A stretch of DNA of 64,000 nucleotides from Candidatus Buchananbacteria bacterium (GTDB lineage Bacteria > Patescibacteriota > Patescibacteriia > 2-01-FULL-39-33): positions 23,116 through 87,115 of the forward strand of contig JBAYJM010000001.1 of the NCBI GenBank assembly GCA_041665065.1, read 5' to 3'. A program made the translations under genes and the position numbers. The notes under the pieces are model-generated. The model saw only the letters and a list, made by a program, of their open reading frames with translations, had not been told where the DNA came from and made no database searches. Positions 1-20,734 of this stretch are shown one piece after another (positions within the stretch are counted from its first letter, which is position 1; every line of letters starts with the position of its first letter).

Positions 1-594
1 TATTTACCCATTGATGAAGATCATCCGACTGAGCCGATTAATTTTTATGGTTTTACAAAATTGAAAATAGAGAGGCTATTGAAATGGTTTAACCAATTAA
101 AAGGAATTAATTTTGCCAGCCTGAGATATTTTAATGCGGTTGGCTATGATCCTGATAGGGGAGCTAAGGGCTTGGAACAAAATCCCAGTAATCTTTTGCC
201 GGTGTTAATGGAGGCCGCAAAAGGAATTAGGAGTTATGTTGAAGTATATGGAGATGATTATGACACGGATGATGGTAGCTGTGTTCGCGATTATGTTCAT
301 GTCAGCGATTTGGCATCTGCGCATCTGGCGGCTTTAAATAAGTTGTTTGCAGGAAGTGAAAGCATGACATTGAATTTGGGTTCATCAGCCGGTATTAGTG
401 TTTTTGAAATGATAAACGAAGTTAAAAAAATATCAGGCGTTGATTTTGAAGTTAGGTTCGGCCCTCGCCGTCCCGGAGATCCTGAGATATTGTTAGCCAA
501 TTCTCAAAGAGCGTGTGAGATGTTGGGATGGAAAGCGCAATATAGTGATTTGCAGACAATAGTAAAAACAACCTGGCAAGCATACAACCAATAA
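1..594 (+). CDS. galE: UDP-glucose 4-epimerase, C-terminal part (5' end lies outside the window)
   Basis: Frame 1 is open from position 1. It encodes YLPIDEDHPTEPINFYGFTK...DYVHVSDLASAHL, the typical GalE/NAD-dependent epimerase C-terminal half. Stop is TAA at 592-594. Confidence 0.75.
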   Translation, partial: YLPIDEDHPTEPINFYGFTKLKIERLLKWFNQLKGINFASLRYFNAVGYDPDRGAKGLEQNPSNLLPVLMEAAKGIRSYVEVYGDDYDTDDGSCVRDYVHVSDLASAHLAALNKLFAGSESMTLNLGSSAGISVFEMINEVKKISGVDFEVRFGPRRPGDPEILLANSQRACEMLGWKAQYSDLQTIVKTTWQAYNQ

Positions 595-1457
595 TGGTTA
601 CAAAATCTGAAAAAATATTTGGATGCAGAGTTGGAGCACATGTTTCGGCTGCCGGCAGTATTATATTTGCTCCGGATAGGGCAAGGGAAGCCGGTTGCGA
701 ATGTTTTCAATTTTTTTCGCGTTCTCCCCAGGGTGGAAACGCCAAGCCGATTGATAAAAAAACTGCAGAAGAATTTATTTCCAAGTGCAAAAGCAATCAA
801 ATGGAGTCCTATATCCATGCGCCTTATTTTATAAATTTAGGCTCGGCAAATAATAAGATATTTTACGGTTCAATATCGTTTTTAAAAGAAGAATTAAAGC
901 GAGGAAGCCAATTGGGAGTAAAATATTTAATGACTCATTTGGGCAGTGCAAAAGAATTGGGCGACAAAGAAGGCCTTAAAAAGGTGGTCAAGGGCATTAA
1001 AGAAATTTTGGCGGACTATAAAGGTTCCTGCGAGTTTTTAATTGAAATGGCGGCTGGAGCGGGAAGTATTATAGGCGATACATTCGAGGAAATAGCAATA
1101 ATTGTTAATTCCAAAGAATTAAAAAAATATAACATCGGCATTTGTCTTGATACGGCACACGCTTTTGCTTCCGGTTATGATTTGCGAAATGAGAAGGCGG
1201 TAAAGGCCACTTTTAAAAAGCTCAATGATATTTTAGGAAGTGATAGGCTAAAGTTAATACATGCCAACGACAGTAAGGCAGACTTGGGCAGCCACAAAGA
1301 TCAGCATGCCCATATTGGAGAAGGAAAAATCGGTTTAGATGGATTTAAAGCAATTGTGAATTATACCTGCAAGCAAAAAGTAAATTTGATATTAGAAACA
1401 CCAAAAGACGGAAAGGATTTAGAGGACATTGAAATTTTAAAAAAGTTGAGAAAATAA
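594..1457 (+). CDS. nfo: Endonuclease IV (AP endonuclease, Nfo family)
   Basis: 287 aa. Metal-binding motifs HAPYFINLGS, HLGS, ICLDTAHAFASGYD and HANDSK...GSHKDQHAHIGEGKIG are present. Its ATG overlaps the galE stop by 1 nt. Confidence 0.85.
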   Translation: MVTKSEKIFGCRVGAHVSAAGSIIFAPDRAREAGCECFQFFSRSPQGGNAKPIDKKTAEEFISKCKSNQMESYIHAPYFINLGSANNKIFYGSISFLKEELKRGSQLGVKYLMTHLGSAKELGDKEGLKKVVKGIKEILADYKGSCEFLIEMAAGAGSIIGDTFEEIAIIVNSKELKKYNIGICLDTAHAFASGYDLRNEKAVKATFKKLNDILGSDRLKLIHANDSKADLGSHKDQHAHIGEGKIGLDGFKAIVNYTCKQKVNLILETPKDGKDLEDIEILKKLRK

Positions 1458-1460
1458 AAT

Positions 1461-1486
1461 GGCCGGTTGGTTGTCCCGGCCGTTTC
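1461..1486. terminator. GC hairpin (GGCCGG-9nt-CCGGCC) between convergent nfo and a minus-strand cassette
   Basis: Perfect 6-bp inverted repeat at 1461-1481, followed by TTT. Candidate bidirectional terminator. Confidence 0.35.
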
Positions 1487-1509
1487 GAGGTGGCGGCCCT
1501 TCGTTTCGT

Positions 1510-1779
1510 TTATGGACCGCACTGAACCTCCCTTACCCCTTCGTCCGTGATGGAATACTCATCGATCACTGGCTGAAATCTGAGCCAGCCCAATGCGATC
1601 AGGGATTCCAGATCAGGCTGAGTCCAGTTTGTGACGACTTCTCCACGGTCACTGCTTCCCCGGTGGTAGCAGTTAATTGCTTCGTCAGCAGTGATCCAGG
1701 TGAACCCCTCGAATTCGAATTCCTCATACAATCTAGAGATGAGCTGAATATCTCTCTCCGTGGCTACAACGTTACTCAT
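1510..1779 (-). CDS. Hypothetical small protein (GC-rich cassette, gene 2 of 2)
   Basis: ORF in a region of about 50-55% GC. Internal ATG (MSNVVATERDIQ...) is preceded by a GGGAG Shine-Dalgarno site. No recognisable family. Confidence 0.45.
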   Translation of the reverse strand: MSNVVATERDIQLISRLYEEFEFEGFTWITADEAINCYHRGSSDRGEVVTNWTQPDLESLIALGWLRFQPVIDEYSITDEGVREVQCGP

Positions 1780-1829
1780 TGTTGCGCTCCCCATCGGTTG
1801 AACCGCTACTTCACCTTGCAATCCGCTTC

Positions 1830-2087
1830 TTACTTTTTTCTTGTCACTTTAAGCCTTATTGGCTCAGAGACAATCTCTAGGTCCCCCTCCTTTTCAACTA
1901 CCGCCCAAATATCAGAGCCGTCTTTCTGACAGTGGATTGTGAATGGGTACAGGCTTTCATTGAAGTGGGGCGGTCCCCAGTTTATGAGTACCGCATTTTC
2001 TATACGCGTTTTACCTCCTCGTCTGGCGGTGATGTTTACCCCGCTTTTAGGGGTAAGTTCATGTTTCTGCTCCCCGCTTCTAATCAT
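1830..2087 (-). CDS. Hypothetical small protein (GC-rich cassette, gene 1 of 2)
   Basis: 85 aa ORF. A strong GGAGGG Shine-Dalgarno site sits 6 nt upstream of the ATG (reverse complement of 2088-2101). GC-rich, unlike its neighbours. Confidence 0.5.
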   Translation of the reverse strand: MIRSGEQKHELTPKSGVNITARRGGKTRIENAVLINWGPPHFNESLYPFTIHCQKDGSDIWAVVEKEGDLEIVSEPIRLKVTRKK

Positions 2088-2132
2088 TGGTCTCCCTCCT
2101 TAATATCAAAGTATAGTCTTATTAGTAATTAA

Positions 2133-2645
2133 ATCAAGTATATAAAAATCGCTATTATTTCAGATTCACATGATAATGTTTCAAATATTGAAAAGTTTTT
2201 GAATTGGGTTGGAAATAATAATATAGAGACAATTATTCATTGCGGTGATTTATCGACGCCGTCTGTCTTGCAAAATGAATTTGGGCCAAAATTCAAGGGG
2301 CAATTTCACTTTGTTCATGGCAATGTTGCCGATAGGGACGTGGACGAAGAAATGGCCGATGAATTTGAAAATTTAATTTGTCACGGGGATATTGGAAAAT
2401 TAGTGATAGAGGGGCAGAAACTCGCTTTCTGCCATCATCCTGACCTAGCAAGGGATTTGGCAAAGACAGGCGAATATGACTTGATTTTTTGCGGTCATAC
2501 GCATAGGCCATGGATGGAGACATTGGATAATGGCACGCAAATAATTAACCCCGGCACATTGGCAGGCCTTTTTAACAAGGCAACGTTTGCAGTTTATGAC
2601 ACCAAGACAAAAAATTTGGAGTTAAAAATTTTAGAAACATTATGA
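2133..2645 (+). CDS. YfcE/MJ0936-like metallophosphoesterase (start codon unclear)
   Basis: Encodes GDLSTP, GNVADRD and GHTHRPW. The track ORF begins at TTG 2199, but the frame is open back to 2133 and encodes IAIISDSHDN, the conserved N-terminal D-x-H motif. No canonical ATG/GTG lies upstream, so the start may be non-canonical. Confidence 0.6.
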   Translation: MKYIKIAIISDSHDNVSNIEKFLNWVGNNNIETIIHCGDLSTPSVLQNEFGPKFKGQFHFVHGNVADRDVDEEMADEFENLICHGDIGKLVIEGQKLAFCHHPDLARDLAKTGEYDLIFCGHTHRPWMETLDNGTQIINPGTLAGLFNKATFAVYDTKTKNLELKILETL

Positions 2646-2866
2646 GGCAGATTTTAGTCCAGGCAAAACCCAATTCATCAAAGGTGGAGGTCGAAAAAAT
2701 TACTGATCAAGTATATAAAGTCAGATTAACGGCGCCACCGGTTGATGGCAAAGCAAATGACCAACTTATTAAGGTTTTGGCTCAATATTTTGATGTTAGT
2801 AAGAGCAATATCGCCATAAAAGCTGGAAAAAACGCTAAAACCAAGGTGGTGATAATTTATGGATAA
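2642..2866 (+). CDS. YggU/DUF167 family protein (UPF0235)
   Basis: 74 aa with the characteristic VDGKAND motif. Overlaps the preceding stop by 4 nt. Confidence 0.7.
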   Translation: MRQILVQAKPNSSKVEVEKITDQVYKVRLTAPPVDGKANDQLIKVLAQYFDVSKSNIAIKAGKNAKTKVVIIYG

Positions 2867-2995
2867 GTTGGTTATAACTTAATTGAAAATAAACCATAAA
2901 TCATATATAATTCCTTATGCTGAAGGGAAGTTTTTGGTATTTTGTGTAATTTTGGCCAAAGATTATGAAATGCAGATTATTGTTCAGTTTGTAGC

Positions 2996-3024
2996 TATTG
3001 ACAAAATTTATCATTTGTGATAAT
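2996..3024 (+). promoter_or_regulatory. Consensus sigma70-type promoter TTGACA-17-TAATAT
   Basis: TTGACA at 2996-3001, 17-nt spacer, TAATAT. No ORF follows on the plus strand for about 500 nt. Confidence 0.5.
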
Positions 3025-3030
3025 ATGTTT

Positions 3031-3453
3031 AATCGCAGGTAATTCCCATCCATTGCTCTGCAGGCACGACAAGCATGGGATTATTAATTAAGGACTATTT
3101 TGGTTTTAACGGACTGGAATTCTCCCTTAAAATAATTTCTTGTCTGCAGGGAAATGGATAGCAGTTGAAGCGATAGTATCCGGTAGCCTGTAGGTTAACA
3201 ATTCAATCAAATTTGTCACCTTCCAAAAAAATTTGAGAAAATTTTTATTTCTTCCCGTACGCTTCGGCGGACGGAAAATGCTCGGACGGGCTGATACGGC
3301 TAGGCACGACAAGCATGGGAATTTTATGGGCAATTTCAGGCTACGGCTTGAATCCTGCTCTACAAAATTTTCTTGCCTGGCCATATAAGCCCATCCGAGT
3401 TTAAACCTACAGGCTATCTGATAATATCTCCCCGATTATGTCGGGGTTTTTTG
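3031..3453 (+). ncRNA. Candidate structured ncRNA of unknown class (about 425 nt, promoter-to-terminator)
   Basis: Bounded by a consensus promoter and an intrinsic terminator, with no ORF above 40 codons. Internal direct repeat aggcacgacaagcatggga (3061-3079 and 3303-3321). Long-range complementary segments tagcctgtaggttaa (3183-3197) and ttaaacctacaggcta (3399-3414). A UUCG-capped helix ccgtacgc-ttcg-gcggacgg. Local hairpins ggata...tatcc and tcccat...atggga. Confidence 0.4.
3430..3453 (+). terminator. Intrinsic terminator CCCCGA-ttatg-TCGGGG + TTTTTTG
   Basis: 6-bp GC stem followed by a run of six U on the plus strand. Confidence 0.6.
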
Positions 3454-3517
3454 TTGCTCTATTTCTTGTTTGTAAAATCAAATTATGTTATTATGTATTC
3501 ATAATTGAAAGATAAAA

Positions 3518-3928
3518 ATGAGCACAACCATAAAGAAAAACGATTTTTTTCAAAGCCAAACCGATCATAAAGATGCCGTAGAAGAATGGTATTCTGGTGA
3601 AGGTCAACTGCTTTGCGATGTTTACGAAAGCGGCGATTATTTAATAGTCAAATCTACAATTGCCGGAGTTGATCCTAAAGACATCGATATATCCGTTGCG
3701 CATGATGTTTTGACGATTCGAGGCGTTCGAAAAATGGATGAAGAAATTGAAGATGAAAAATTTTATGCCCGGGAGTGTTATTGGGGTTCGTTTAGCAGGT
3801 CAATAGTTTTGCCTCATGAAATAGATCAAAAAAAAGTTGCAGCAAGTTTAAAAAACGGCGTGCTAACAGTTAAGCTGCCAAAAAAATATAAATCAACATC
3901 GATTAAAATAAGACAGAGCAATGGATGA
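3518..3928 (+). CDS. Small heat shock protein, Hsp20/alpha-crystallin family
   Basis: 136 aa with the alpha-crystallin domain and C-terminal VLTVKLPKK-like motif. Own TTGTTT-17-TATTAT promoter upstream. Confidence 0.85.
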   Translation: MSTTIKKNDFFQSQTDHKDAVEEWYSGEGQLLCDVYESGDYLIVKSTIAGVDPKDIDISVAHDVLTIRGVRKMDEEIEDEKFYARECYWGSFSRSIVLPHEIDQKKVAASLKNGVLTVKLPKKYKSTSIKIRQSNG

Positions 3929-4157
3929 TCAAAAGATAAAATTTTTAACCGGAGTAATTGATAGGATTGAGGGCGAGAAGGCAGTCGTCAGGCTTGATGA
4001 CGGCCAGGAAATTGTTTGGCCAAAAGATAAATTAACATCGGACATAAAAGAGGGATCATCAGTTAAAATAATCGCGCTGGGCGACAATGAAATGGAAGCG
4101 CACAGAGAAGAAATCGCCAAAAACATTTTGAAGGAAATTTTTAAGACAGATGATTAA
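3921..4157 (+). CDS. DUF3006-like small protein
   Basis: 78 aa. VIDRIEGEKAVVRLDDGQEI...P resembles the DUF3006 beta-barrel family. Overlaps the Hsp20 stop. Confidence 0.5.
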   Translation: MDDQKIKFLTGVIDRIEGEKAVVRLDDGQEIVWPKDKLTSDIKEGSSVKIIALGDNEMEAHREEIAKNILKEIFKTDD

Positions 4158-6099
4158 TTTCAAAAAGCTCCTGGAGAAAAGCCGGGAAAACATGGGATCG
4201 GAAGAATCAGGCAGGCAGAAAAAATCCCAAAAATGGTGGCTATTACTAATTATTGTAGTCGCTTTTTTTATAGTTATTGCCTTGGCGATAATCGGCCTTA
4301 TTGTTTTTGAAATAAAATATAAGTACGAATTTTTTCCAGGAAGCAGGATTGGTAATATTTCGCTTGAAGGCCTAAATCGCGAACAGGCATTGGCCTTGAT
4401 AACACCGATGGCCGATAAAATTGAAAGAGACGGAATAGAAATAAGATATCAGAATGATTCGCATAATTTAAATCTGACAGGCACGATTGATTCATTGTCT
4501 GATCCTGACTTATCACGGGAAGTTTTATATTTTGATGAGTACAAAACTATTTATGAATCATTTAAAACGGGTCATGATGGGTCGTTATTTAAAAATATTG
4601 GAGACCAATGGTCGACGTTTTGGGGTGTTAAAAACTTCAAGGCGGATTTTGTCTTGGATGAAGACGCATTAAATAAAATTTTAAAAGCGCAATTTGGAAA
4701 AAATGATCAGTCGCCCAAAAATGCGACTCCGAAAATAACTTGGGCGGGGAATAGCTATAAAATAGAAATTGAAAATGAAAATCCCGGCAGTGAGATTGAT
4801 TATCAAAAGGCCATTGACGATTTAAAAAACAATTTTTTAGAAATTTCAGATAAGCCGATTTTGTTAACACAAAAAATTACTGAGCCGACAGTAACGGCAG
4901 ATGAAATAACCGGCAAAACCGGTGATATCGATTTTGTTTTAAATTCGTCTACGCCAAAATTTTCATACGCAGATAAAAATTGGCAAATGGATAAAAAAAA
5001 GTTATCACAAATGATCGAATTTCAGAAAGTTGATAACGAAATTAAATTGGGTTTAAATCACGATCTATTTATAAAGTGGTTTACTGATACTATTTCAGCT
5101 CAAATTAATGTCGAGCCCAAAAATGCGCAGATAGAAATCAAAGACGGACAAGCCACAAAAATTTCCACCCATCAGGAAGGATTGAAAGCTGATGCGGAAA
5201 AGGCCTACGCTGATGTTCAGGGCAGATTAATGACAGCACAGTGGCCGGTTGCCGTTGAAGTGGTAAAAATTGCTCCGGATGTGGCAACTGATAATATCAA
5301 TGACATGGGCATTAAAGAAATTATCGGCGTTGGCGAGTCTGATTTTAAAGGCAGTCCAAGCAACAGGATTCATAACATTAAAAATGGTGCTAGCAAAGTG
5401 CATGGAATTTTAATTAAGCCCGGCGAAGAATTCTCTTTGATAAATACTTTAGGAGAAGTTGAAAAATCAACAGGATATTTGCCAGAGCTGGTTATCAAGG
5501 GCAATAAGACAATGCCTGAATATGGCGGCGGGCTTTGCCAAGTCGGGACGACAATGTTTAGAGCGGCGATGGGATCGGGTCTGCCAATAACTGAAAGGCG
5601 CAATCATTCATATAATGTTACTTATTATTTGGAAAATGGTTTGCCGGGAGTTGATGCTACAATCTATATTCCTCATCCTGATGTTAGATTTATAAACAAT
5701 ACTGGAAATTATGTTTTAATTCAGACTAGGGTAGAAGGTACTAAATTAAAGTTTGAATTTTGGGGCACAAAGGATGGCAGACAGGCTACAAGGACAAAGC
5801 CCAAGGCTTGGGACTGGGTTTCACCTCCGCCTACAAAATATGTTGAAACAACAGAATTAAAGCCAGGACAAAAGAAATGCACGGAAAGCGCCCATAAAGG
5901 CGTTAAGGCTTCATTTGATTATATTGTCACTTCAACTGACGGAACAGTAAAAAGACAGAATTTTTATTCGGTATACAAGCCCTGGCAGGCAGTTTGTTTG
6001 ATTGGCGTTGACCCGAATAAGGCCGTTGCAACCAGTACCGAAGTAATAATCGGAACGCCTGAAAATCCCGTGACAACTACTACTAGTGTTAGTAATTAA
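4150..6099 (+). CDS. VanW family protein, membrane anchored
   Basis: 649 aa with an N-terminal TM helix. Carries the VanW core motif GYLPELVIKGNKTMPEYGGGLCQVGTTMFRAAM. Confidence 0.75.
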   Translation: MINFKKLLEKSRENMGSEESGRQKKSQKWWLLLIIVVAFFIVIALAIIGLIVFEIKYKYEFFPGSRIGNISLEGLNREQALALITPMADKIERDGIEIRYQNDSHNLNLTGTIDSLSDPDLSREVLYFDEYKTIYESFKTGHDGSLFKNIGDQWSTFWGVKNFKADFVLDEDALNKILKAQFGKNDQSPKNATPKITWAGNSYKIEIENENPGSEIDYQKAIDDLKNNFLEISDKPILLTQKITEPTVTADEITGKTGDIDFVLNSSTPKFSYADKNWQMDKKKLSQMIEFQKVDNEIKLGLNHDLFIKWFTDTISAQINVEPKNAQIEIKDGQATKISTHQEGLKADAEKAYADVQGRLMTAQWPVAVEVVKIAPDVATDNINDMGIKEIIGVGESDFKGSPSNRIHNIKNGASKVHGILIKPGEEFSLINTLGEVEKSTGYLPELVIKGNKTMPEYGGGLCQVGTTMFRAAMGSGLPITERRNHSYNVTYYLENGLPGVDATIYIPHPDVRFINNTGNYVLIQTRVEGTKLKFEFWGTKDGRQATRTKPKAWDWVSPPPTKYVETTELKPGQKKCTESAHKGVKASFDYIVTSTDGTVKRQNFYSVYKPWQAVCLIGVDPNKAVATSTEVIIGTPENPVTTTTSVSN

Positions 6100-6113
6100 T
6101 GGCCTTGACTTTT

Positions 6114-6143
6114 TGGCTATAATTGTTTATAATTTTAAAAGTT
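6114..6143 (+). promoter_or_regulatory. Promoter TTGACT-17-TATAAT
   Basis: Consensus-like -35/-10 pair with 17-nt spacer, upstream of a short hairpin-terminated segment and tRNA-Glu. Confidence 0.4.
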
Positions 6144-6185
6144 TAATCAGTGTTTAAGGCTGTCATCCTGGACTCCTTTATTGTC

Positions 6186-6222
6186 ATTCCGTACTTAATA
6201 ATACGGAATCTCGTCTTTTTTA
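6186..6222 (+). terminator. Hairpin ATTCCGTA-8nt-TACGGAAT followed by a T-run
   Basis: 8-bp perfect stem, then ctcgtcTTTTTT. With the promoter at 6114 it bounds a short transcript of about 80 nt just upstream of the tRNA. Confidence 0.4.
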
Positions 6223-6255
6223 TAAAATACTGATTACCAGTTACAATTTATATTT

Positions 6256-6327
6256 GCGGCCATCGTCTAACGGTTAGGACGCCAGGTTTTCATCCTGGTA
6301 ATCGGGGTTCGATTCCCCGTGGCCGTA
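6256..6327 (+). tRNA. tRNA-Glu (anticodon UUC)
   Basis: Cloverleaf: acceptor GCGGCCA/TGGCCGT, D-arm GTCTAACGGTTAGGAC, anticodon stem CCAGG/CCTGG with loop TTTTCAT (anticodon TTC), T-arm CGGGGTTCGATTCCCCG. CCA is not encoded. Confidence 0.85.
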
Positions 6328-6342
6328 CTACTATTTTCAAAA

Positions 6343-6380
6343 AGAAAAGCACCAATATTTTGGGTGTTTTTTCTTTGAGG
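6343..6380 (+). repeat. Terminator-like element; imperfect direct repeat of 8813-8850
   Basis: gaaaagcaccaatattttgggtgttttttctttgagggctaatga is about 80% identical to gaaaaaacacccatattcgggtgttttctttttgaggtgaatga at 8813-8850. Confidence 0.45.
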
Positions 6381-6455
6381 GCTAATGAGAATCGATCTAT
6401 AGCTTTTGACTTTTGAATTTCAATATCAGATAATTATAATAAATATTTATTAAAT

Positions 6456-7163
6456 TTGCATATGGATTCAAGACAATATATAAAGCCTTTGAGTAAAAAA
6501 GAGAAAGCATCTGTTTTAAGGATGAGAGATAATATTCTTGAACAATTTAGAAAGACACCAAAGACGGGTATTGAAGTTAAACATCTTGGAAAATCATTCA
6601 TTGTTCCTGATGGTGTTTTTTGGCCTCGACCCGATAGCGAGTCATTAATAAAAAATTTTATAATTAGGAAAGGCGAAATTGTTTTAGATGTTTGTACTGG
6701 CTCAGGAGTTATCGCAATAAATGCAGCTCTGAAAGGAGCTAAAAAAGTTATTGCTGTTGATATAAGTCCTAAAGCTGTTAAGGCAGCTATATTAAACGTG
6801 AAACGTTTTAAGTTGGAAAAAATAATTGAAGTTCGAAAGTCAAATGTTTTTTCAGGGGTCAATAAAAAAGAAAAATTTAATGTTATTACATTTAATCCAC
6901 CTTTTTATAATGAACCAGCAAAAGATTTGATAGATAGAACCATGAAGGATCCTGGCTTTAAAACCACAATTAAATTTTTTAAGGATGTAAAAAATTATTT
7001 AAAAACAAAAGGCAGAATTTATGTTGCACAAGCTAATTCTGGAGATGTTCTTAAGATGATCGAATTGGCTGAAAAAAGTGGATTTAGCGTAAGGCCTATC
7101 GGGAAGAAAAAAATGCCAGAAAGTCCTCTTGAATTTTATGCTTTTGAATTGTTATTTAAATAG
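6456..7163 (+). CDS. Class I SAM-dependent methyltransferase, small-domain type with NPPF motif (HemK/RsmC-like)
   Basis: 235 aa. Motif I LDVCTGSGVIAINAA, acidic D at VDIS, and catalytic NPPF. Confidence 0.7.
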   Translation: MHMDSRQYIKPLSKKEKASVLRMRDNILEQFRKTPKTGIEVKHLGKSFIVPDGVFWPRPDSESLIKNFIIRKGEIVLDVCTGSGVIAINAALKGAKKVIAVDISPKAVKAAILNVKRFKLEKIIEVRKSNVFSGVNKKEKFNVITFNPPFYNEPAKDLIDRTMKDPGFKTTIKFFKDVKNYLKTKGRIYVAQANSGDVLKMIELAEKSGFSVRPIGKKKMPESPLEFYAFELLFK

Positions 7164-7337
7164 TTTTCCAACAGTTGCGTTAATCCGTACTAGAAAAATA
7201 ACCCATGCTTAAGGGGCTATTTTTTTATTAACTAATAGGGAATCGAACTTACTAAAATAAAATAGTTCCAAGACGAATATATATAAGTCAGGGGGCAGTG
7301 AATCTCTATTTGCGGGGATACAGAAGCCAGCTTCTGA

Positions 7338-7370
7338 TTTAAAAAACCGTAACAATCCTTTGTTACGGTT
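7338..7370 (-). terminator. Intrinsic terminator AACCGTAACAA-tcct-TTGTTACGGTT
   Basis: 11-bp perfect stem directly after the stop of the minus-strand gene. A run of six U follows on the minus strand. Confidence 0.6.
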
Positions 7371-8671
7371 TAATCCTCCAGGGTGGGTAGTTCGATTCCA
7401 GCCAAAAGGTCCTCTATATCCTCGTGGTCCCTCCTCGCACTTCCACGAGATTTTCTGTCGTTGTCGTCAGCAGAGCGTGTAGCCAGTATTTTGTCGATTG
7501 CCGAGTCAAAGTTAAACTTGTCAATCTTAGTGGCGTCTATGCTGCGGAGTACCTCTAGGACATTGCGTTGCATGAACGCATCGGGCAAGCTCAGCGTATC
7601 CCATCCAAAGTAAAACCCATATCGGCGCACTGAGCTTATAAGTTGGGTGAAGCTGAGAGTATGGCCAAGGTCTTTGATGATAGCTTCGATAAGTGAGCGA
7701 AAGTCCTCAACCGATTGAGGAGGTCGCGATGGACCTTCATGCAGAGCCCTCCAAACTCCACGCCTCACTTTGCCGAACCGCCTATCATTTGGATGAGTTA
7801 GGTGACAGCATACGTCGTTTTTCAACCCTTCTTTGTTTTTGGTCTGGTCAACGACATATCCACTGCTTGGATCAATAATTGCATTGCAAAGTTCATCATA
7901 CGTCCAGCCAGCAATTATCCTTTGCGCTCTCATTATTGTGTAGAGAGCATCGCGTTGATGGGGGGTGTGTTTCGGCCTCTTATATTCGCTTCGTTTTTTT
8001 GTCACCTTTAGACGAAGCTTCTTGGGAGTTGGCAGTTCCGCGCCGCTTCTCAGTCCCCAACGAGTATTCCGTGTTGGAATGTGGCCAGTGGCGTCCGGTA
8101 CTTTAACAAATAGTTCTTCGTTCCTGGCAACAACATTCCAGACGTCAATTCGTAGCTGTTTCTCGTCGATTTCTGGTTCATTGAAACTCTGATGGTTGCG
8201 GACTCTCTCCATAATCTCTCCAAGAACCAGAGGCCCCTCTTGAAGAATGTCAAAAATGATCGCGCGAAGAGCAAATCTGCCAACCATAATATGCCTATCA
8301 ACCGGCTTCCTTTTCCTTTCCAGTGTTTTTTGGAGCATTGGATCGGCGGCCGTAAAACGGACGTACCAAAGCCCATGACGTTGTCGGAATATGTGGGTTC
8401 TGGAATTCAGCACCAGATCGTGCAGGAGTCTGACCAGTTTTTCGTGGCTTAATCCTGAGGGGATTTTCCTGTCCCGGCGCAAAGCCATGATAAGTTCTGT
8501 AATCGTCATGGCTTTTTGTGATAGCAAATGAATTACCGCCTTTGTTTTTGTGCCGAGATCCGGACGAAGTGAGTCTATGACTTGTTGAGCGGACAGTATG
8601 GTGCCAGGCGCAAGGCCCAATTTTCTCATGCCCCTCTCGGGGCCTGTTTTTTGACCCCTAGATTTGGACAT
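7370..8671 (-). CDS. Hypothetical basic protein with multiple winged-helix-like segments (GC-rich island)
   Basis: Long ORF at about 50% GC, against about 33% for its neighbours. Likely start MSKSRGQKTGPERG, with an aaaggaaaa ribosome-binding site upstream. Several HTH/winged-helix-like stretches (AVIHLLSQKAMTITELIMAL; RFALRAIIFDILQEGPLVLGEIMERV). No integrase motifs recognised. Confidence 0.5.
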   Translation of the reverse strand: MSKSRGQKTGPERGMRKLGLAPGTILSAQQVIDSLRPDLGTKTKAVIHLLSQKAMTITELIMALRRDRKIPSGLSHEKLVRLLHDLVLNSRTHIFRQRHGLWYVRFTAADPMLQKTLERKRKPVDRHIMVGRFALRAIIFDILQEGPLVLGEIMERVRNHQSFNEPEIDEKQLRIDVWNVVARNEELFVKVPDATGHIPTRNTRWGLRSGAELPTPKKLRLKVTKKRSEYKRPKHTPHQRDALYTIMRAQRIIAGWTYDELCNAIIDPSSGYVVDQTKNKEGLKNDVCCHLTHPNDRRFGKVRRGVWRALHEGPSRPPQSVEDFRSLIEAIIKDLGHTLSFTQLISSVRRYGFYFGWDTLSLPDAFMQRNVLEVLRSIDATKIDKFNFDSAIDKILATRSADDNDRKSRGSARRDHEDIEDLLAGIELPTLED

Positions 8672-8812
8672 GGCAATTTTCCTTTGTTGGTCGCTATTGG
8701 TTAAAGGTACTTTAAGCATTATATTATTATATTAGCATTAGTCAAAGGTTGCTGGTTGAGTTATTAAAAATAAGAGCAGGATTTTTGTTAATTACTACTA
8801 GTTTTTTAAGAA

Positions 8813-8850
8813 GAAAAAACACCCATATTCGGGTGTTTTCTTTTTGAGGT
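8813..8850 (-). terminator. Intrinsic terminator ACACCC-atattc-GGGTGT; direct repeat of 6343-6380
   Basis: Hairpin flanked by A and T runs (bidirectional), immediately downstream of the minus-strand methyltransferase gene. Confidence 0.55.
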
Positions 8851-8859
8851 GAATGATAT

Positions 8860-9567
8860 TTATTTTTTCTGAAAAACCATTATTGCCATTCTAATCACGG
8901 ACTTTGTATTTGGAGAACGAGTTTCCAGCTCCTCTTTATGTATTATTTCAAAATCTTTAAATAATGTTTCCAATTCTTTTGTCTCAAAATGATGAGCTAT
9001 GCGAGCAATTTTATTTTTTTCAATCGCTTCCTCCATTTGCTTTTGAGTCTCAATAGAACTTGAAGAAGTGCCTTCATTAAAAACAAAAAAATTGTGTTTT
9101 TCATCTACAAACGGGCGCGAGAGTTCATATCTTTTATTATAATCCTCAGAAACCAAGCCCTCGTTTACCCATATTAAAGCGCCAGGCTTTAGAATACGAT
9201 TTAATTCTAAGACCAAAGCCTTTCTTTTTGATAATGGCATTATGTTTACTAACACAAAAGATATAATTATGGCATCAAAAGATTCATCGGCAAACGGCAG
9301 GATGTCCGTTATGTCACTAATTACATAATCAACTTGAGTCGGCTTTAGTTTATTTTGTGATATAGCTTCTTCATTTATATCAATTCCCGTAACTCTATAT
9401 CCTTGATCGGATAAATACTGTGCCATTTCGCCGGTTCCGCAGCCTAAATCCAAGATTGCAGATCCAGGCTCCAATCTTCTAATTAACTCATCGCCAGGAA
9501 ATGCGTTTCTGCCAATAATTGATTTAGCTGGAACAGTTTTCCAATATTGTGTATTTAAATCTTTCAT
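8860..9567 (-). CDS. Class I SAM-dependent methyltransferase
   Basis: 235 aa. Motif I ILDLGCGTGEMAQYL, motif II VDYVISD, motif III LKPGALIWV. Confidence 0.75.
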   Translation of the reverse strand: MKDLNTQYWKTVPAKSIIGRNAFPGDELIRRLEPGSAILDLGCGTGEMAQYLSDQGYRVTGIDINEEAISQNKLKPTQVDYVISDITDILPFADESFDAIIISFVLVNIMPLSKRKALVLELNRILKPGALIWVNEGLVSEDYNKRYELSRPFVDEKHNFFVFNEGTSSSSIETQKQMEEAIEKNKIARIAHHFETKELETLFKDFEIIHKEELETRSPNTKSVIRMAIMVFQKK

Positions 9568-9624
9568 TTGTTAATTTTATCAAAGATGCTCCAGTTAGTC
9601 ATATTAATGCTAAAAGATACGGCA

Positions 9625-9653
9625 TTGACAAAGCTAGAATAATATATTATAAT
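9625..9653 (+). promoter_or_regulatory. Perfect consensus promoter TTGACA-17-TATAAT
   Basis: TTGACA at 9625-9630, spacer aagctagaataatatat (17 nt), then TATAAT. Confidence 0.5.
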
Positions 9654-9699
9654 GCACAATTGTACATAGTGATTGGTGTAACTAACAAAGGGGGTGCAT

Positions 9700-9954
9700 A
9701 TGCCCATTGTGCCGATAAAGAGAGGAATCCCACAGAGTGTGAAGGGACGAATGGAATTTGTCCTTGATCGCTTAAGATGGATCGGCTGGTCCGTGAATGT
9801 TATCGGACTAGTTCGAAACATCGGGTGGGATACAAAGCTGCCCTATATGGAGCTTGAGCCGATTGTCAAAGTGGCTCTCAAAGGACTTTGTAGGGCGGGT
9901 TTTATCGAGGTGGTAAAAAACGATCATCGGCTGATCGTTCCTGCCAAGTCGTAA
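9700..9954 (+). CDS. Hypothetical 84-aa protein in a stand-alone cassette (moderately GC-rich)
   Basis: ATG preceded by an AAAGGGGG Shine-Dalgarno site and followed by a hairpin and T-run at about 9963-9990. No family recognised. Confidence 0.45.
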   Translation: MPIVPIKRGIPQSVKGRMEFVLDRLRWIGWSVNVIGLVRNIGWDTKLPYMELEPIVKVALKGLCRAGFIEVVKNDHRLIVPAKS

Positions 9955-10018
9955 CAAAAGCGTCGAGAGAAGATCTTGGCGCTGTTTTATTTTAAATATT
10001 TTTTTGTTGGATAATAGT

Positions 10019-11782
10019 TTAAATTACTACTCCCATCTGTTCTCGCCAAAGCGCAGAATAAAGTCCGCCTAGGTTTTTCAGCTCATCATTTTTTCCAACT
10101 TCAATTATTTTCCCTTTTTCCAAAACATAAATTTTATCGGCATGGGAAATCGTTGATAGGCGATGGGCGACTAGGATAGTTATCATTTTTGAAGAAGCTT
10201 TATCCAAGCTTTTTATTGTATCTGAAATTTCTTTTTCAGTGATAGAATCCAAACTGCTGGTTGCTTCATCAAAAATTAGAAGTGAAGGCTTGCGCAGGAG
10301 CGCTCTGGCGATTGCCAGTCTTTGGCGTTCACCGCCGGAAAGTTTCAGGCCTCCTTCGCCGATAATTGTATCAAGTCCTTTTCCGCCTCGTTGCATAATC
10401 TGAGAAACAGAGGCCGCCTCAAGCGCTTCAAGACAATCTCCATCACTTGCGCTTGGTTTGGCAAAAAGCAAGTTATCTCTAATTGATCCAGCAAATAACT
10501 GAGTTTCTTGGGAGACTAATCCGATTTTGTTCCGAAGATCATTATAATCAATTTTTTTAGAATCAATGCCATTAAAAGTCAGCTTTCCAGCTTGAGGTTG
10601 ATATAATCCGAGGATAAGTTTTACCAAAGTCGTTTTGCCGGATCCTGATGGTCCGACAAAAGCAACTGTTTCTCCTGGTGTTATTTTTAGAGAAGCTTCC
10701 TTTATGCTTGCCTCATTGCCTGATACATAAGTGAAGGTAATATTTTCAAAATCAATATTTAAATCATCGTCTAGTTTAATGGGATTTGTTGGCTTAGCCT
10801 GCGAAGGCATCTTTAGGATAGTATCTAATTGCTCCATGCTAGCTTTGGCCTCTTGGTATTGCGAAGATAATGCGCCCAATTCTCCGAGCGGTCCGAAAAT
10901 AAAAAATAGATAAAAGAAGAGGCTGAAAAATTCACCGAGCGTAATGCTTCTAGTATAAATAAGCCAAAGCATCAAAAGCATTATTAGCGCGCGCGAGGCA
11001 TTTATGGCTGTGCCTTGGATAAAACTCAAAGTCCTGACCAATCGTATTTTGCGCAGTTCTAATTTTAAAATATCATTATTTACTTCATTTAATCTTTTAA
11101 TTTCTTGGTTTTCGAGTCCAAGACTTTTAACCAACTCAACATTGCGAAGTGTTTCTGTTGTTGATCCTGCCAAGGCGGTCATTTGGGCGTTGATGTTTTT
11201 TTGAGCTTGCTTTACTTTTCCGCTAATAAAAAATATCGCCGCTCCAAGTGTCGGGGTTAAAATTAAAAAAGCCAAACCAATGGTCCAATTGACCCAGGAA
11301 GCGTATATTAGTACGAACAGTAATCCGACAATTGATAGAAATAAACTGCCGATCATGCCGGCAATCAAAGTCTGGCTGTCTAGCCTTGCCTTTTGCAGTT
11401 TTTGTAGAATCTCGCCGGATTTTTGATCTTCAAAATTTTGATAAGGCAAAGAAAAGGCATGAGCCACGCTATCGGCATAAAGTTTGGTCCCCAGTCTTTG
11501 GGTTATGACGTTTACATAGTAATCCTGGAAGTTTTTGGCGATTCTGGAAACTAGCGCCACGCCGACTGATAAGGCTAGTAAAAATAAAACCCCGCTAATA
11601 AAATCATTCCTTGAAAGAGTAAAGGCCTTATTGATATAGTTATCAACTATCAGTCTAAAAACCTGCGGATCAAGCAGAGAAAAAATCTGATTAATGGTGG
11701 CCAAAATCAAAGCAAAAATCAGCAGTGATTTATAGTTATTTAAATATTTCCAAATTAATTTCATATAATAACATTTTAACAT
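10019..11782 (-). CDS. ABC exporter, fused permease/ATPase (MsbA/ABCB-type)
   Basis: 587 aa with six N-terminal TM helices. Walker A GPSGSGKTT, signature LSGGERQRLAIARAL, Walker B LLIFDEATSSLD. Confidence 0.85.
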   Translation of the reverse strand: MLKCYYMKLIWKYLNNYKSLLIFALILATINQIFSLLDPQVFRLIVDNYINKAFTLSRNDFISGVLFLLALSVGVALVSRIAKNFQDYYVNVITQRLGTKLYADSVAHAFSLPYQNFEDQKSGEILQKLQKARLDSQTLIAGMIGSLFLSIVGLLFVLIYASWVNWTIGLAFLILTPTLGAAIFFISGKVKQAQKNINAQMTALAGSTTETLRNVELVKSLGLENQEIKRLNEVNNDILKLELRKIRLVRTLSFIQGTAINASRALIMLLMLWLIYTRSITLGEFFSLFFYLFFIFGPLGELGALSSQYQEAKASMEQLDTILKMPSQAKPTNPIKLDDDLNIDFENITFTYVSGNEASIKEASLKITPGETVAFVGPSGSGKTTLVKLILGLYQPQAGKLTFNGIDSKKIDYNDLRNKIGLVSQETQLFAGSIRDNLLFAKPSASDGDCLEALEAASVSQIMQRGGKGLDTIIGEGGLKLSGGERQRLAIARALLRKPSLLIFDEATSSLDSITEKEISDTIKSLDKASSKMITILVAHRLSTISHADKIYVLEKGKIIEVGKNDELKNLGGLYSALWREQMGVVI

Positions 11783-11914
11783 TAATTAGCCAGTTTATCA
11801 TTGATAGAATAGAAGGTCAATATATTTATATTTACACATATTAAAAATAGTATTATAATTAAATTAGCAAAATTAAATGGTGGATTAATATAAATATAAA
11901 TTTTTAAATTTAAT

Positions 11915-12922
11915 ATGGCAAATTCAACAAAGCTTTATCCGACAAAGGTGAAGACAAAAAGCACATTGGCTGTAATTATTATTGCAGTTGCCGTTATTGC
12001 AGGTGTTTTTTTTGGATGGTCTTCTTTTAATGGAATTACTTATTTAGTAAGTAGTGGGTCAAGGACAAGCTTGATAAATAAATGTCCACTTTATCATTCT
12101 GCTGATGTAAATAAAAATTATATTATTGAATCAGAAGAAATAAATTATGTAAATAAATTGAGAGAGTCAAAAAATTATCATTGTGATAAGACTGCTTATT
12201 CAGGATATGCTGTTGGTTATGGTAATAAAAATTGTAAGAAGCATAGTTCAGACTACAGAGAAGATCCTGAAAGCCTATCAATTATTGGTGATTGGAAAAT
12301 AAACTTAAGTGAATTTTTAAGATTAGTGCAATTTTATAATGCCGGTGGATATAAGGTTGATTGTAAGGGTGAAGATGGTTTTGCGCCGTCAGCAAATTCT
12401 GTTGTTTATCATTCCGCTGATGTAAATAAAAATTATATTATTGACAAGAATGAAATGGATTACGTTCTTAAGCTACAAGCTTCAAAGTCATATCATTGTG
12501 ATTCAAAAGCTTTTTCTGGTTATGCTACTGGAACCGGTTCGAAAGTTTGTAAGCCACATAATTCGGATTACTTAATTAAACCGGAAAGCGAACGAATTAA
12601 AGGAAGTGATTGGATTATAAGTATGAGTGAACTCCTAAGATTGGTTCAATTTGTAAATACCGGCGGTTATAAGTTTGTGGGATTTGAAAATAGTGAAGAT
12701 GGTTTTGAGCCAAGCGCACCATGCATTGGAGAGGGCCAAGCCATTATTTTAAGTGGTGCTGGAAGCCAAAATTGCTGTGCTGGATTAAAGTTATTGCCAC
12801 CAAAAAATACTTCTGAAGGTACTGCTGGTATATGTACGGCAAAATGTGGAGATAAAGTATGTGATAGTAATTTAGAATCTTGCACAAATTGCATAGCAGA
12901 TTGTCCAAATTGTAAAATTTAA
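11915..12922 (+). CDS. Membrane-anchored secreted repeat protein with a Cys-rich C-terminus (unknown function)
   Basis: 335 aa with an N-terminal TM segment. Two roughly 110-aa tandem repeats (YHSADVNKNYII...YHCD...SGYA.G.G.K.CK.H.SDY...LRLVQF.N.GGYK), supported by a near-identical 36-nt DNA repeat at 12091 and 12405. C-terminal CxxC-rich tail. Confidence 0.55.
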   Translation: MANSTKLYPTKVKTKSTLAVIIIAVAVIAGVFFGWSSFNGITYLVSSGSRTSLINKCPLYHSADVNKNYIIESEEINYVNKLRESKNYHCDKTAYSGYAVGYGNKNCKKHSSDYREDPESLSIIGDWKINLSEFLRLVQFYNAGGYKVDCKGEDGFAPSANSVVYHSADVNKNYIIDKNEMDYVLKLQASKSYHCDSKAFSGYATGTGSKVCKPHNSDYLIKPESERIKGSDWIISMSELLRLVQFVNTGGYKFVGFENSEDGFEPSAPCIGEGQAIILSGAGSQNCCAGLKLLPPKNTSEGTAGICTAKCGDKVCDSNLESCTNCIADCPNCKI

Positions 12923-13050
12923 CTAAATACTTTTTGAATTTTAAACTAGCTAAAACATCCGCTTACATGCGGATGTTTTTATTAGCTAATTTAAATATGG
13001 GTTATAGTGGACGCTTTTATGATGTTGAAGTAGTCCTGGTCAAGGTTAGT

Positions 13051-13079
13051 TTTTAAACAAAAAAAATTGCCGAAACGCG
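13051..13079 (-). terminator. Intrinsic terminator GCCGAAACG-12nt-CGTTTCGGC
   Basis: 9-bp stem with a run of eight U on the minus strand, downstream of the minus-strand gene 13118-13843. Confidence 0.55.
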
Positions 13080-13117
13080 TGTGAGTGCACGTTTCGGCGA
13101 GGGTTGGTGAGCAAATC

Positions 13118-13843
13118 TTAGGCCGATTGCCTATCCATGATTTGAATCAGCGCGTGACCCTTGGGGTCAACGCGTTTGATGACAAGGATCTTGGGACCCG
13201 CAGGGAGAATATTCCAGTACGTTTCCGCGATCTCTCGGTGGTCGCCAATGACGGGTACGAGAAGCGGGCCTCGAAACGAGTGAGTCTGGCCGGTGTCCTT
13301 TGTGCTTGTCGTGACACAGTAGCCAAAGCCGGACTCCATGTTGGGATATTGTTCTTTGCGTCTGTGGCCGTCATCGGTCTCCGTAGTTACGGAAATACCG
13401 GCATGAGGGGCCTCACCATTAAAGAAGCAGTAAGCGCTTACGCGTGGCGCATCGACCAATCCAAATCTGCGTTGATTGGAGTCTGCCTCACCAAATGCGG
13501 CATCGACAAATGTCGCATCGATGGGCGTGCCTCCTTGAAGTTTGGCGTAGTATGCAGCCCTGAGATGGTCTATGACGCTTTCGGTTTGGCCATTCGTCAC
13601 CACGTGGGTGTGGTAGTAACCGGCCATGGCGAGATAAGAAACGGGGCAGGGAATTCCTGGATTAATGGGAACAACCCGCACACTTCCATCGCAATCGTCA
13701 ATGGCAAAGGTGCAATTTGAATCTCCCATAATCCAGGCGACTTGATACAATACTTCACGGAAGAACGCCACCACTATCCCGTTGCTGGGGCTTTCACAAA
13801 GTGAAACAAAATTGTCTTGGGCCTCAACTCTTTCGGCGCTCAT
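13118..13843 (-). CDS. Hypothetical protein, GC-rich island
   Basis: 241 aa. GGGGGAA Shine-Dalgarno site upstream of the ATG, and a minus-oriented terminator downstream. The overlapping plus-strand ORF 13085-13720 is rejected because it starts inside the terminator hairpin. No confident family; His/Asp-rich segments (GDSNC, YYHTHVV) could hint at a metal-dependent hydrolase. Confidence 0.45.
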   Translation of the reverse strand: MSAERVEAQDNFVSLCESPSNGIVVAFFREVLYQVAWIMGDSNCTFAIDDCDGSVRVVPINPGIPCPVSYLAMAGYYHTHVVTNGQTESVIDHLRAAYYAKLQGGTPIDATFVDAAFGEADSNQRRFGLVDAPRVSAYCFFNGEAPHAGISVTTETDDGHRRKEQYPNMESGFGYCVTTSTKDTGQTHSFRGPLLVPVIGDHREIAETYWNILPAGPKILVIKRVDPKGHALIQIMDRQSA

Positions 13844-14001
13844 GATTATGAGATTCCCCCTAGTGTAAATTGTTTGATGAAGCCAAGATACGCTCTTGCT
13901 TCTTTGTTAAGTGTGTTTTATTTTTTAATTTTTGTCAATTATAATTTTTATCTAATTTTATTGTTATTTTTAGGTGGAGATAGGATTATTATTTAAATAA
14001 A

Positions 14002-14040
14002 ATAAAAAAACCGCCAAGTCATAGCCGTGCTATGTGGCGG
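14002..14040 (-). terminator. Intrinsic terminator (CCGCCA...TGGCGG stem + U-run on minus strand)
   Basis: Reverse complement reads cccgccacatagcacggctatgacttggcggttttttt, directly downstream of gene 14045-14440. Confidence 0.45.
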
Positions 14041-14044
14041 GTTA

Positions 14045-14440
14045 TTAGGTGTGTACAGGTTTGCGCTTCGTCTCTCTTATTTCGGTAATTACCCCTGCTT
14101 GCTCCAGGGCTATAATATAGTCATTGAGCCGTTTGTCGCTACCATAGATCCGAAAGAGCAGACGGTCGTGATAGCCAACTTCAAGACATAGATTGTTTTG
14201 GAAAACTGATGTTAAGCCAGCGCCTGCAAATTCTCCATGGTCTATTCCGAAAACCAGGATCGCTTCCTTCCACCTAGTATAGTCTGACCACAGATTTACT
14301 AAGGTTCTTACCAGGGCAACCCGATCCTCAAGTGTAGGCGCTTCAAATAGCGCGGCGTTAATCCGATCGATCGGATCAACCGGTTTTTCGGCTCTCCCAA
14401 CAAGGAGGGCAGAAATGAAATCCAGTACAGTGTGTGACAT
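14045..14440 (-). CDS. Hypothetical protein, GC-rich island
   Basis: 131 aa. Very strong AAAGGAGGGAG Shine-Dalgarno site 6 nt upstream of the ATG. Own terminator. Confidence 0.5.
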   Translation of the reverse strand: MSHTVLDFISALLVGRAEKPVDPIDRINAALFEAPTLEDRVALVRTLVNLWSDYTRWKEAILVFGIDHGEFAGAGLTSVFQNNLCLEVGYHDRLLFRIYGSDKRLNDYIIALEQAGVITEIRETKRKPVHT

Positions 14441-14581
14441 TTGGACTCCCTCCTTTGGGTTTTTGGCCTTTGAAATTAGTACGCAGGGTTAATTTAACAG
14501 ATATGAGAGCTATTTTCAAGTAGAGCCTAAACTTCATGATTTCTATAGCCTTCATTGATTATAATCATTTCTGGTGGTATT

Positions 14582-15148: not shown

Positions 15149-15162
15149 TAAATTTAGCTATT

Positions 15163-15194
15163 TACAAACACTTCACACGTGTGTGAAGTGTTTG
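15163..15194. repeat. Perfect 32-nt palindrome ACAAACACTTCACACGTGTGTGAAGTGTTTGT
   Basis: Lies between the ECF sigma gene and the putative anti-sigma gene. No T-run follows, so it is more likely an operator or RNA hairpin than a terminator. Confidence 0.5.
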
Positions 15195-15251
15195 TAGAAT
15201 TAACTCCAAAAAGAGGTGCACCAAAAGGCGCCTCTTTTTCGTATTAGTAAT

Positions 15252-15656: not shown

Positions 15657-15658
15657 GT

Positions 15659-16156: not shown

Positions 16157-16171
16157 ATAATCTAAATAAAT

Positions 16172-18013: not shown

Positions 18014-18017
18014 AAAT

Positions 18018-18716: not shown

Positions 18717-18718
18717 TT

Positions 18719-19939: not shown

Positions 19940-19959
19940 TTATTAATAAAATATAAGCT

Positions 19960-20711: not shown

Positions 20712-20734
20712 AAATAATTTTAGGTAAACAAATA

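Follow-up and report, generated by a model that had tools for sequence, protein, structure and literature searches.

Paired terminators next to a tRNA-Glu gene enclose a GC-rich gene for a predicted three-winged-helix protein at a variable locus of a Candidatus Buchananbacteria genome

Are direct repeats that begin at the 3′ end of a tRNA gene the borders of an integrated element? This question is raised by a 2.4-kb segment directly 3′ of the tRNA-Glu gene in a stretch of 64,000 nucleotides, hereafter called the window, of a Candidatus Buchananbacteria bacterium (assembly GCA_041665065.1, contig JBAYJM010000001.1, positions 23,116 to 87,115 of the forward strand). An earlier note, made from the letters alone, had described a terminator-like element that recurs at both ends of the segment with about 80% identity and brackets a methyltransferase gene of native composition and a guanine-plus-cytosine (GC)-rich gene for a basic protein of 433 amino acids (aa), and had left the choice between a decayed island and two related terminators. 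A self-mobile or decayed integrase-type island was not supported by our analysis. The reading that we favor, with moderate confidence, is that a terminator module of tRNA-Glu was duplicated at a recombination hotspot and that the enclosed genes were placed there separately, so that the segment would not be self-mobile. The window is AT-rich (GC 37%; 0.373), and the tRNA-Glu gene is its sole tRNA gene according to ARAGORN and Rfam (Table 1). Two further assemblies agree with the arrangement, one from Logan, made independently (100% identical over 6294-9227), and one from ENA (99.99% identical over 1-18719), and the arrangement is therefore no assembly artefact.

The repeat copy next to the tRNA gene (copy A, 6326-6380) and that at the far end of the segment (copy B, 8793-8849) were identical in 47 of 58 alignment columns (81%), with four gap positions; the repeat is real and longer than the earlier note had stated. 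The alignment opens with an exact TACTACTA at the final two bases of the tRNA and closes at TTTGAGG. Its Smith-Waterman score was 50-56, whereas 2,000 shuffles averaged 15 and did not exceed 29. Copy B was the top match to copy A when the window was tiled on both strands (approximately 6,400 tiles), neither a third copy nor any other repeat of comparable quality was present in the 64 kb, and the pair stood far above every other pair of terminators there. A repeat family spread over many unrelated terminators, which the earlier note had named as a finding that would speak against an island, was not seen within these 64 kb. By sequence, copies A and B are specifically related to each other and are not members of a genome-wide terminator family.

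Both copies have an A-tract, a hairpin, and a T-tract and were predicted by RNAfold to fold as terminators, and a terminator scan also picked up copy B with nine pairs, four of them GC. The stem of copy B lies 20 nt past the stop codon of the methyltransferase gene at 8860-9567, and its T-run is on the minus strand, from which this gene is read. The sequences and predicted folds of both copies thus present what characterizes a Rho-independent terminator, a stem-loop and a T-run directly after a transcription unit. They resemble bidirectional terminators of this class in the A-tract, the GC-containing stem, and the T-tract, in that each lies at the end of a transcription unit, and in the position of copy B directly after an opposite-strand gene; they differ from them in that two copies occur here, 2.4 kb apart, with an identity of 81% that includes the non-structural flanks. 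To our knowledge, independent terminators are not expected to be that alike, flanks included.

The segment was compared with what an integrated element would contain. In the precomputed list of Pfam matches, no integrase, transposase, or Rep gene was found within approximately 10 kb on either side, in line with the earlier note, which had recognized no integrase. The two methyltransferase open reading frames (ORFs; 6462-7163 and 8860-9567) matched only methyltransferase models in Pfam, and the former did likewise in NCBIfam, where its matches to PRK14968/HemK-type models were all under the cut-off. The GC-rich ORF had no match in Pfam, NCBIfam, PHROGs, or PADLOC. Of the tRNA gene, the repeat covers 2 nt only and not the 3′ part, and a search for further copies of TAATTCCCCGTGGC with up to three mismatches gave just a chance match at 39318. 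The flank of copy B was also tried as a decayed tRNA 3′ end by anchored alignment with a score tolerant of C>T and G>A changes, and was rejected (p = 0.39 versus random positions); the comparison with the 3′ half of the tRNA that had been proposed in the earlier note therefore yielded the 81% direct repeat and a copy B flank that is not tRNA-like. The GC content at third codon positions (GC3) was 0.20 for the methyltransferase gene at 6462-7163 and 0.49 for the GC-rich gene, with a window median of 0.34. The native composition claimed for this methyltransferase gene was borne out, and because the enclosed genes are opposite in composition, their joint arrival from one donor is unlikely. The segment as a whole was not compositionally distinct from the host. 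Accordingly, one half of the earlier alternative stood, as both copies are predicted terminators and are specifically related, and the other half did not, as the island failed in the integrase, the tRNA 3′ part, and the composition.

Islands adjacent to tRNA genes with tyrosine integrases (P4-like or of the integrative and conjugative element type, bounded by the attachment sites attL and attR) share with the segment the location directly 3′ of a tRNA gene, direct repeats, a gene of foreign composition, and variability between strains at the same tRNA gene. The segment differs from them in lacking an integrase, in having as its repeat a terminator without a tRNA 3′ segment, and in comprising only 2.4 kb with two unrelated genes of mixed composition. 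It also differs from an integron-type cassette array (IntI, attC), in that no integrase occurs within approximately 10 kb and the A-tract/stem/T-tract form of the repeat is that of terminators. A defense-system reading, with methyltransferases flanking the winged-helix gene, was tried and dropped, as PADLOC gave generic methyltransferase-domain matches only (mad2 and restriction-modification methyltransferases). Searches of the literature turned up nothing of relevance.

To what extent the tRNA-Glu flank varies was seen from five related loci (L010, L012, L013, L025, and L026), which keep the upstream order of histidine kinase, HSP20, DUF3006, VanW, and tRNA-Glu. Four of them are readable past tRNA-Glu, and each of these four has different DNA there; the contig of L025 ends inside the tRNA gene, where contig L011 and the contig assembled by Logan for the window organism also stop. 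L010 is collinear with window positions 624-6398 and again from 21387 (ferredoxin, TsaD, and TsaE), with about 2.2 kb between the collinear parts in L010 versus about 15 kb in the window, and these related loci contain no relative of any window gene from 6400 to 20400. The VanW protein is the same in L012 and L013, and the DNA of the two is 100% identical up to ...CCCCGTGG inside the tRNA gene and unrelated beyond. Since the relatives differ after the tRNA gene and contigs break there, the 3′ flank of tRNA-Glu is a rearrangement hotspot, in line with the earlier idea of this flank as an insertion site.

L013 also carries a nearly fresh duplication of the kind under discussion. A 63-nt repeat, composed of the 16-nt tRNA 3′ end and the terminator, brackets a non-coding element of 165 nt without any protein gene, and its two copies are identical in 61 of 63 positions (97%); the copy after the element is followed by a degenerate second motif. 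The L013 duplication resembles the pair in the window in its location at the same VanW-tRNA-Glu locus, in that the repeated sequence is the one directly after the tRNA gene and includes the terminator, and in the same 11-mer after the terminator. They differ in identity (97% in L013, 81% in the window), in the 16 nt of tRNA present in L013, and in the enclosed DNA, which is a non-coding RNA in L013 and two protein genes without this RNA in the window.

Several other features of these loci were recorded. The compared stretches of L012 and L013 were 11978-12130 and 3506-3660, respectively; by our own pairing, two positions of the acceptor 3′ strand of the L012 tRNA (TGGGGTC) do not match the 5′ strand, and this tRNA may be damaged or the contig chimeric. 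In L026 (4255-4605), a 92-aa GIY-YIG ORF (Pfam E = 6e-13) lies between a partial 5′ duplicate of tRNA-Glu, which is interrupted by a 40-nt GC-rich palindrome, and the intact tRNA-Glu; by sequence, this resembles an insertion of the homing-endonuclease type at the same tRNA gene. The window-specific 15 kb (6400-21387) contains two ATP-binding cassette export systems, an extracytoplasmic function-type sigma factor, and several ORFs without a Pfam match, among which those at 13118-13843 and approximately 20780-21090 are GC-rich. A second block of about 7 kb (window 25876-32946) is skipped in the collinear L010.

In L010 (two copies), L013, and L026, GGGGAATCGAAC lies 13-16 nt after the tRNA terminator and opens a GC-rich element of approximately 165 nt, at whose far end the 3′ end of the tRNA recurs as CGTAATTCCCCGT(GGCGGTA). 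The element is a candidate structured RNA, in which the 5′ GGGGAAUCGAAC (inverted T-arm) would pair with the 3′ copy of the tRNA T-loop and T-stem. RNAalifold predicted 45 pairs from the four copies, 19 of them with compensatory changes; G-U cells are present and A-C cells absent, which points to the plus strand as the RNA strand. A covariance model built from three copies found the fourth at 151 bits, and no Rfam family matched the element. A copy in the window was sought with the covariance model, filters off, over 6000-22000 and with nhmmer over the whole window, and was rejected, as the best E values were 0.02-4 apart from the tRNA and the bare 11-mer; a deleted minus-strand copy at 7375-7400 was dropped on the same null result. 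Scanning a viral collection for the RNA motif gave 28 loci, none of which was confirmed by the covariance model.

The 11-mer that starts the RNA of the relatives, GGGAATCGAAC, is nevertheless present in the window. It occurs exactly at 7238-7248, 10 nt after the terminator of the enclosed methyltransferase gene; the match to the T-arm reported earlier is exact and inverted, as had been said, with its coordinates (7237-7247) one base off. A copy with 10 of 11 matches, which runs the other way, falls among the C-terminal codons of the GC-rich gene (7390-7400), and the copy at 6387-6397 occupies approximately the position in which the relatives have GGGGAATCGAAC. Outside the tRNA gene, three of the six motif matches with up to two mismatches in the 64 kb are within 1.1 kb of it, a clustering with a Poisson probability of about 0.002 by our estimate from the shuffle rate. 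The hairpin at 7193-7228 and the motif that follows it weakly resemble the terminator-plus-motif module of the relatives. Judging from these sequences, the 11-mer is probably a relic or a functional part of a tRNA-flank module and neither a chance match nor the core of an attachment site.

The GC-rich ORF (7370-8671) has a GC content of 0.484 versus 0.373 for the window and a GC3 of 0.486 versus a median of 0.337. Translation from 8671 gives the N-terminus MSKSRG, which the closest homologue shares and which supports this start. After the promoter, the leader begins with GTACCTTT, which recurs in homologous loci. With its own promoter, conserved leader, and own terminator, the gene constitutes a self-contained cassette. 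Sequences like GTAC(C)TTTg/cCAAT lie just past the promoter at window 8700-8715 (minus strand), L005 ~2565, L007 ~590, and L009 ~100, and this shared leader motif could be an operator or a transcription-start context. In addition, a perfect 11-bp inverted repeat, GGAATCGAACT / AGTTCGATTCC at 7239-7249 and 7389-7399, encloses the stop codon and terminator of the gene; its inner arm codes for part of the conserved acidic tail of the protein (G-I-E-L).

The encoded protein has an isoelectric point of 9.9, with values of 10.25 for the core and 4.6 for the tail. A word-indexed search of 5.8 billion proteins matched it to itself only, and 17 relatives emerged when 1.84 billion representatives were searched exhaustively with HMMER; 12 of these were below 1e-10, and the best identity was 42%. 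The named members of this family are Patescibacteria, including Buchananbacteria. In an alignment of 13 sequences, the invariant columns were hydrophobic only (L, F, and W), and no catalytic Tyr, Ser, DDE, or HUH set was conserved. PDB profile searches and Pfam scans of all members gave no match, and phage, plasmid, and viral collections yielded no homologues of the family. An AlphaFold model made with the family alignment had a predicted local distance difference test (pLDDT) value of 77.5; the single-sequence model (pLDDT 38) was unusable. The model comprises helix-helix-helix-strand-strand modules at residues 41-104, 131-207, and 236-309, a helical domain at 321-377, and a disordered acidic tail with the conserved sequence L-x-G-[ILF]-[ED]-L-P. 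The three-helix bundle and β-hairpin wing of a winged helix are seen in the model, and fold searches with it returned winged helices only. The earlier description of a GC-rich gene for a basic protein with winged-helix-like segments was thus upheld, with three modules in the model. A relationship to recombinase or replication-initiator families, for which a remote-homology search had been suggested, found no support in the fold searches, the PDB sequence searches, or the conserved residues.

Tandem winged-helix proteins comparable to the 433-aa protein are RPC62/RPC82 of RNA polymerase III, the C-terminal winged helices WH1-4 of SelB, and ScpB/MukE, and single winged-helix comparators are of the forkhead, histone H1, and PadR types. 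The 433-aa protein differs from them in that it has no sequence relationship to and no significant whole-chain match with them, and in its extra helical C-terminal domain and conserved acidic tail. From the alignment and the model, we infer that the protein is non-enzymatic, is no recombinase, transposase, or Rep protein, and is not an agent of mobility. The model further suggests that it binds nucleic acid through three forkhead/H1-like winged helices and recruits a partner through the acidic tail, and it would then be a transcription or nucleoid factor.

The family was also found at loci of quite different surroundings. On short contigs, the family gene stands alone among ordinary genes and tends to be GC-richer than its neighbors, and neither flanking repeats nor tRNA genes were found at the loci in L005, L007, L008, and L009. 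In L027, the family gene lies between the genes for H+-PPase and trigger factor, near nusA; that of L029 is part of the infB...pnp region and is separated from tRNA-Gly by 41 nt. Both have native composition and housekeeping neighbors. Judging by these two contexts, some Patescibacteria have the family gene as a resident of the chromosome, and the infB...pnp/nusA-type position may be its ancestral location. The GC-rich gene in the window looks imported. The L029 stretch (10001-11690) consists of the family member P0011 and, after the 41 nt, tRNA-Gly on the minus strand and tRNA-Pro on the plus strand.

These results are consistent with the following course of events. The 2.4-kb segment would be the tRNA-proximal end of the lineage-specific stretch of about 15 kb (approximately 6400-21387) in a recombination-prone spot. 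Copies A and B would be paralogues of one Rho-independent terminator module; copy A would end tRNA-Glu transcription, and copy B would end the converging gene at 8860-9567 and shield the promoter of the GC-rich gene. The 3′-flank module of tRNA-Glu, comprising terminator, spacer, and inverted T-arm motif, may have been duplicated by unequal or Campbell-type recombination, and the same duplication would be seen almost fresh in L013. The genes would have been inserted between the copies later, in separate events, the GC-rich gene as a horizontally acquired, self-contained cassette. We favor this course because the repeat is specific and unique and both copies are terminator-like and rightly placed for tRNA-Glu and the gene at 8860-9567; because of the collinearity with L010, the varied flanks of the relatives, the break between L012 and L013, and the 63-nt repeat of L013; and because of the recurrence of the T-arm motif at 6387 (9/11) and 7238 (11/11), the GC3 contrast, the L027 and L029 contexts, and the hydrophobic-only invariant residues.

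On the other hand, several points weigh against this course. The hairpin core is palindromic, so that an inverted alignment of the copies scores 49 versus 56 for the direct one, and the direct orientation depends on approximately 12 asymmetric bases (TACTACTA and GAGG). Copy B lacks the 16-nt tRNA end that is found in the L013 repeat, and the local alignment of the middle terminator (7193-7228) with the L013 module is weak (z ~5). The GC-rich ORF ranks eighth among 56 ORFs by GC3, as 8 of the 56 reach 0.49. The best Foldseek E value was 8e-3 with no significant structural match of the whole chain, and the function of the protein is read from its fold class only. Furthermore, no empty site was found for the segment, and no genome close enough turned up: a scan of genome contigs with VanW gave one distant short contig, a metagenome scan with the tRNA 3′ end gave unrelated taxa only, and exact-protein look-ups for the locus gave the same organism only. 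The closest VanW orthologues are approximately 59-63% identical, which makes the nearest relatives too distant for an empty site. The comparison with related genomes called for in the earlier note showed relatives without the segment, at about 62% VanW identity and with other DNA in its place, and all assemblies of the same species contain the segment.

The copies could simply be related terminators without any insertion history, kept alike by gene conversion or shared constraints, with the enclosed genes having always been there. The functional appearance of both terminators, the inverted alignment that is nearly as good (49 vs 56), the native composition of the enclosed methyltransferase gene, and the weak likeness of the post-tRNA terminators of relatives to copy A (A vs L026, z 5.6) would all fit; we consider this explanation rather unlikely, since the 81% identity over 58 columns takes in the non-hairpin flanks (TACTACTA and GAGG) and exceeds that of all other pairs in the 64 kb, the enclosed genes are missing from this locus in all the relatives, and L013 provides a precedent for duplication of the module. 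A decayed integrative island, with the repeats as attL and attR, the integrase lost, and the winged-helix protein as an excisionase-like factor, replication initiator, or regulator, appears highly improbable. In its favor, the direct repeats start at the 3′ end of the tRNA, the GC-rich gene forms a self-contained cassette with a foreign composition, and the tRNA flank is hypervariable. Winged helices are often used by replication initiators and excisionases, which also counts for an island. These points are set against the absence of a recombinase within approximately 10 kb, a tRNA overlap of only 2 nt with no decayed tRNA end at copy B, the opposite compositions of the enclosed genes, and a family that has no homologues in phage, plasmid, and viral collections, lives with native composition among housekeeping genes in L027 and L029, and has neither flanking repeats nor tRNA genes at L005, L007, L008, and L009.

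The terminator-plus-GGGAATCGAAC modules might instead be recombination sites of a cassette-insertion system at the tRNA-Glu flank, with the recombinase encoded elsewhere and the methyltransferase gene, the GC-rich gene, and the 165-nt RNA of the relatives as alternative cargoes. Homology is lost immediately past ...GAAC in the window (6397 and 7248), in L013 (second module), and in L012, the homology of L012 and L013 breaks directly after CCCCGTGG, and the motif is enriched after the tRNA gene, with a different cargo in every relative. We regard such a system as improbable: the window holds only three modules, one of them weak, with no further ones in the rest of the 15 kb; the motif does not follow copy B; no recombinase candidate was found within approximately 10 kb on either side; and the motif could have a structural role in RNA, either paired with the T-arm or as the strand that closes the stem in the 165-nt RNA. 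In its more specific form, quite improbable in our judgment, the terminator, spacer, and GGGAATCGAAC together with the tRNA 3′ end ATTCCCCGTGG would bound a Buchananbacteria recombination system of the tRNA-Glu flank that swaps cargo without an element-encoded integrase. If this were true, the cargo would be the 165-nt RNA in the relatives and the methyltransferase and winged-helix genes in the window, and the three-winged-helix protein might be its DNA-binding partner.

The coordinates of the features are collected in Table 1. Elsewhere in the window, a Cys-rich protein of 335 aa (11915-12922) combines a hydrophobic N-terminal segment with two internal repeats of approximately 120 aa (YHSADVNKNYII...) and has no Pfam match. 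The GC-richest patch is at 36800-37600 (0.64 in 37001-37400) and contains a minus-strand ORF of 214 aa, also without a Pfam match. Another GC-rich ORF (451 aa, 45116-46471) was considered as a paralogue of the GC-rich gene and was rejected; no such relationship was found, and it encodes a radical S-adenosylmethionine (SAM)/SPASM protein.

Table 1. Features of the tRNA-Glu flank, in window positions unless a related locus is named
Feature	Position	Strand	Basis
tRNA-Glu, anticodon UUC, intact, without encoded CCA	6256..6328	+	ARAGORN; Rfam tRNA 64.3 bits
Repeat copy A, predicted Rho-independent, bidirectional-type terminator of tRNA-Glu; core stem 6344-6372	6326..6380	+	Alignment with copy B; RNAfold -14.0 kcal/mol on + strand
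GAGAATCGATC, 9/11 copy of the inverted T-arm motif, few bases 3′ of terminator A	6387..6397	+	
HemK/PrmC/Mtq2-like SAM methyltransferase, NPPF motif, 233 aa, GC3 0.20 (host-like)	6462..7163	+	Pfam MTS 5.5e-16
Terminator-like hairpin 3′ of the methyltransferase gene	7193..7228	+	Read from sequence
GGGAATCGAAC, exact reverse complement of the tRNA T-arm	7238..7248	+	
Putative intrinsic terminator of the GC-rich gene, CCGTAACAA/TTGTTACGG + T-run, abutting the stop codon	7338..7368	-	Read from sequence
GC-rich gene, 433 aa, basic; predicted three tandem winged helices, helical C-terminal domain, acidic tail	7370..8671 (to 8719 as called)	-	
Putative sigma-70-type promoter of the GC-rich gene, TTGACT, 16 nt, TATAAT	8718..8745	-	
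Repeat copy B, predicted terminator of the methyltransferase gene 8860-9567; stem 8816-8839	8793..8849	+	RNAfold -14.0 kcal/mol - strand, -18.9 + strand
Methyltransf_11/25-type SAM methyltransferase, host-like composition, predicted to be terminated by copy B	8860..9567	-	Pfam 3.6e-22
Candidate structured RNA, ~165 nt	L010 12193-12362 and 12418-12587; L013 3638-3804; L026 4715-4884		

Although some of its details are curious, the finding is of an ordinary kind. Direct repeats beside a tRNA gene can be duplicated terminators and not attachment sites, which matters for automated island calling, and the segment illustrates a hotspot of variability beside a tRNA gene in a genome of the Candidate Phyla Radiation. 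The analysis has two by-products, which may exceed the finding in value. One is a rare protein family with three winged helices in tandem, for which Pfam has no model and in which the named members belong to Patescibacteria. The other is a structured RNA of approximately 165 nt, supported by covariation and without an Rfam family, which lies beside tRNA-Glu in relatives and mimics the 3′ half of the tRNA.

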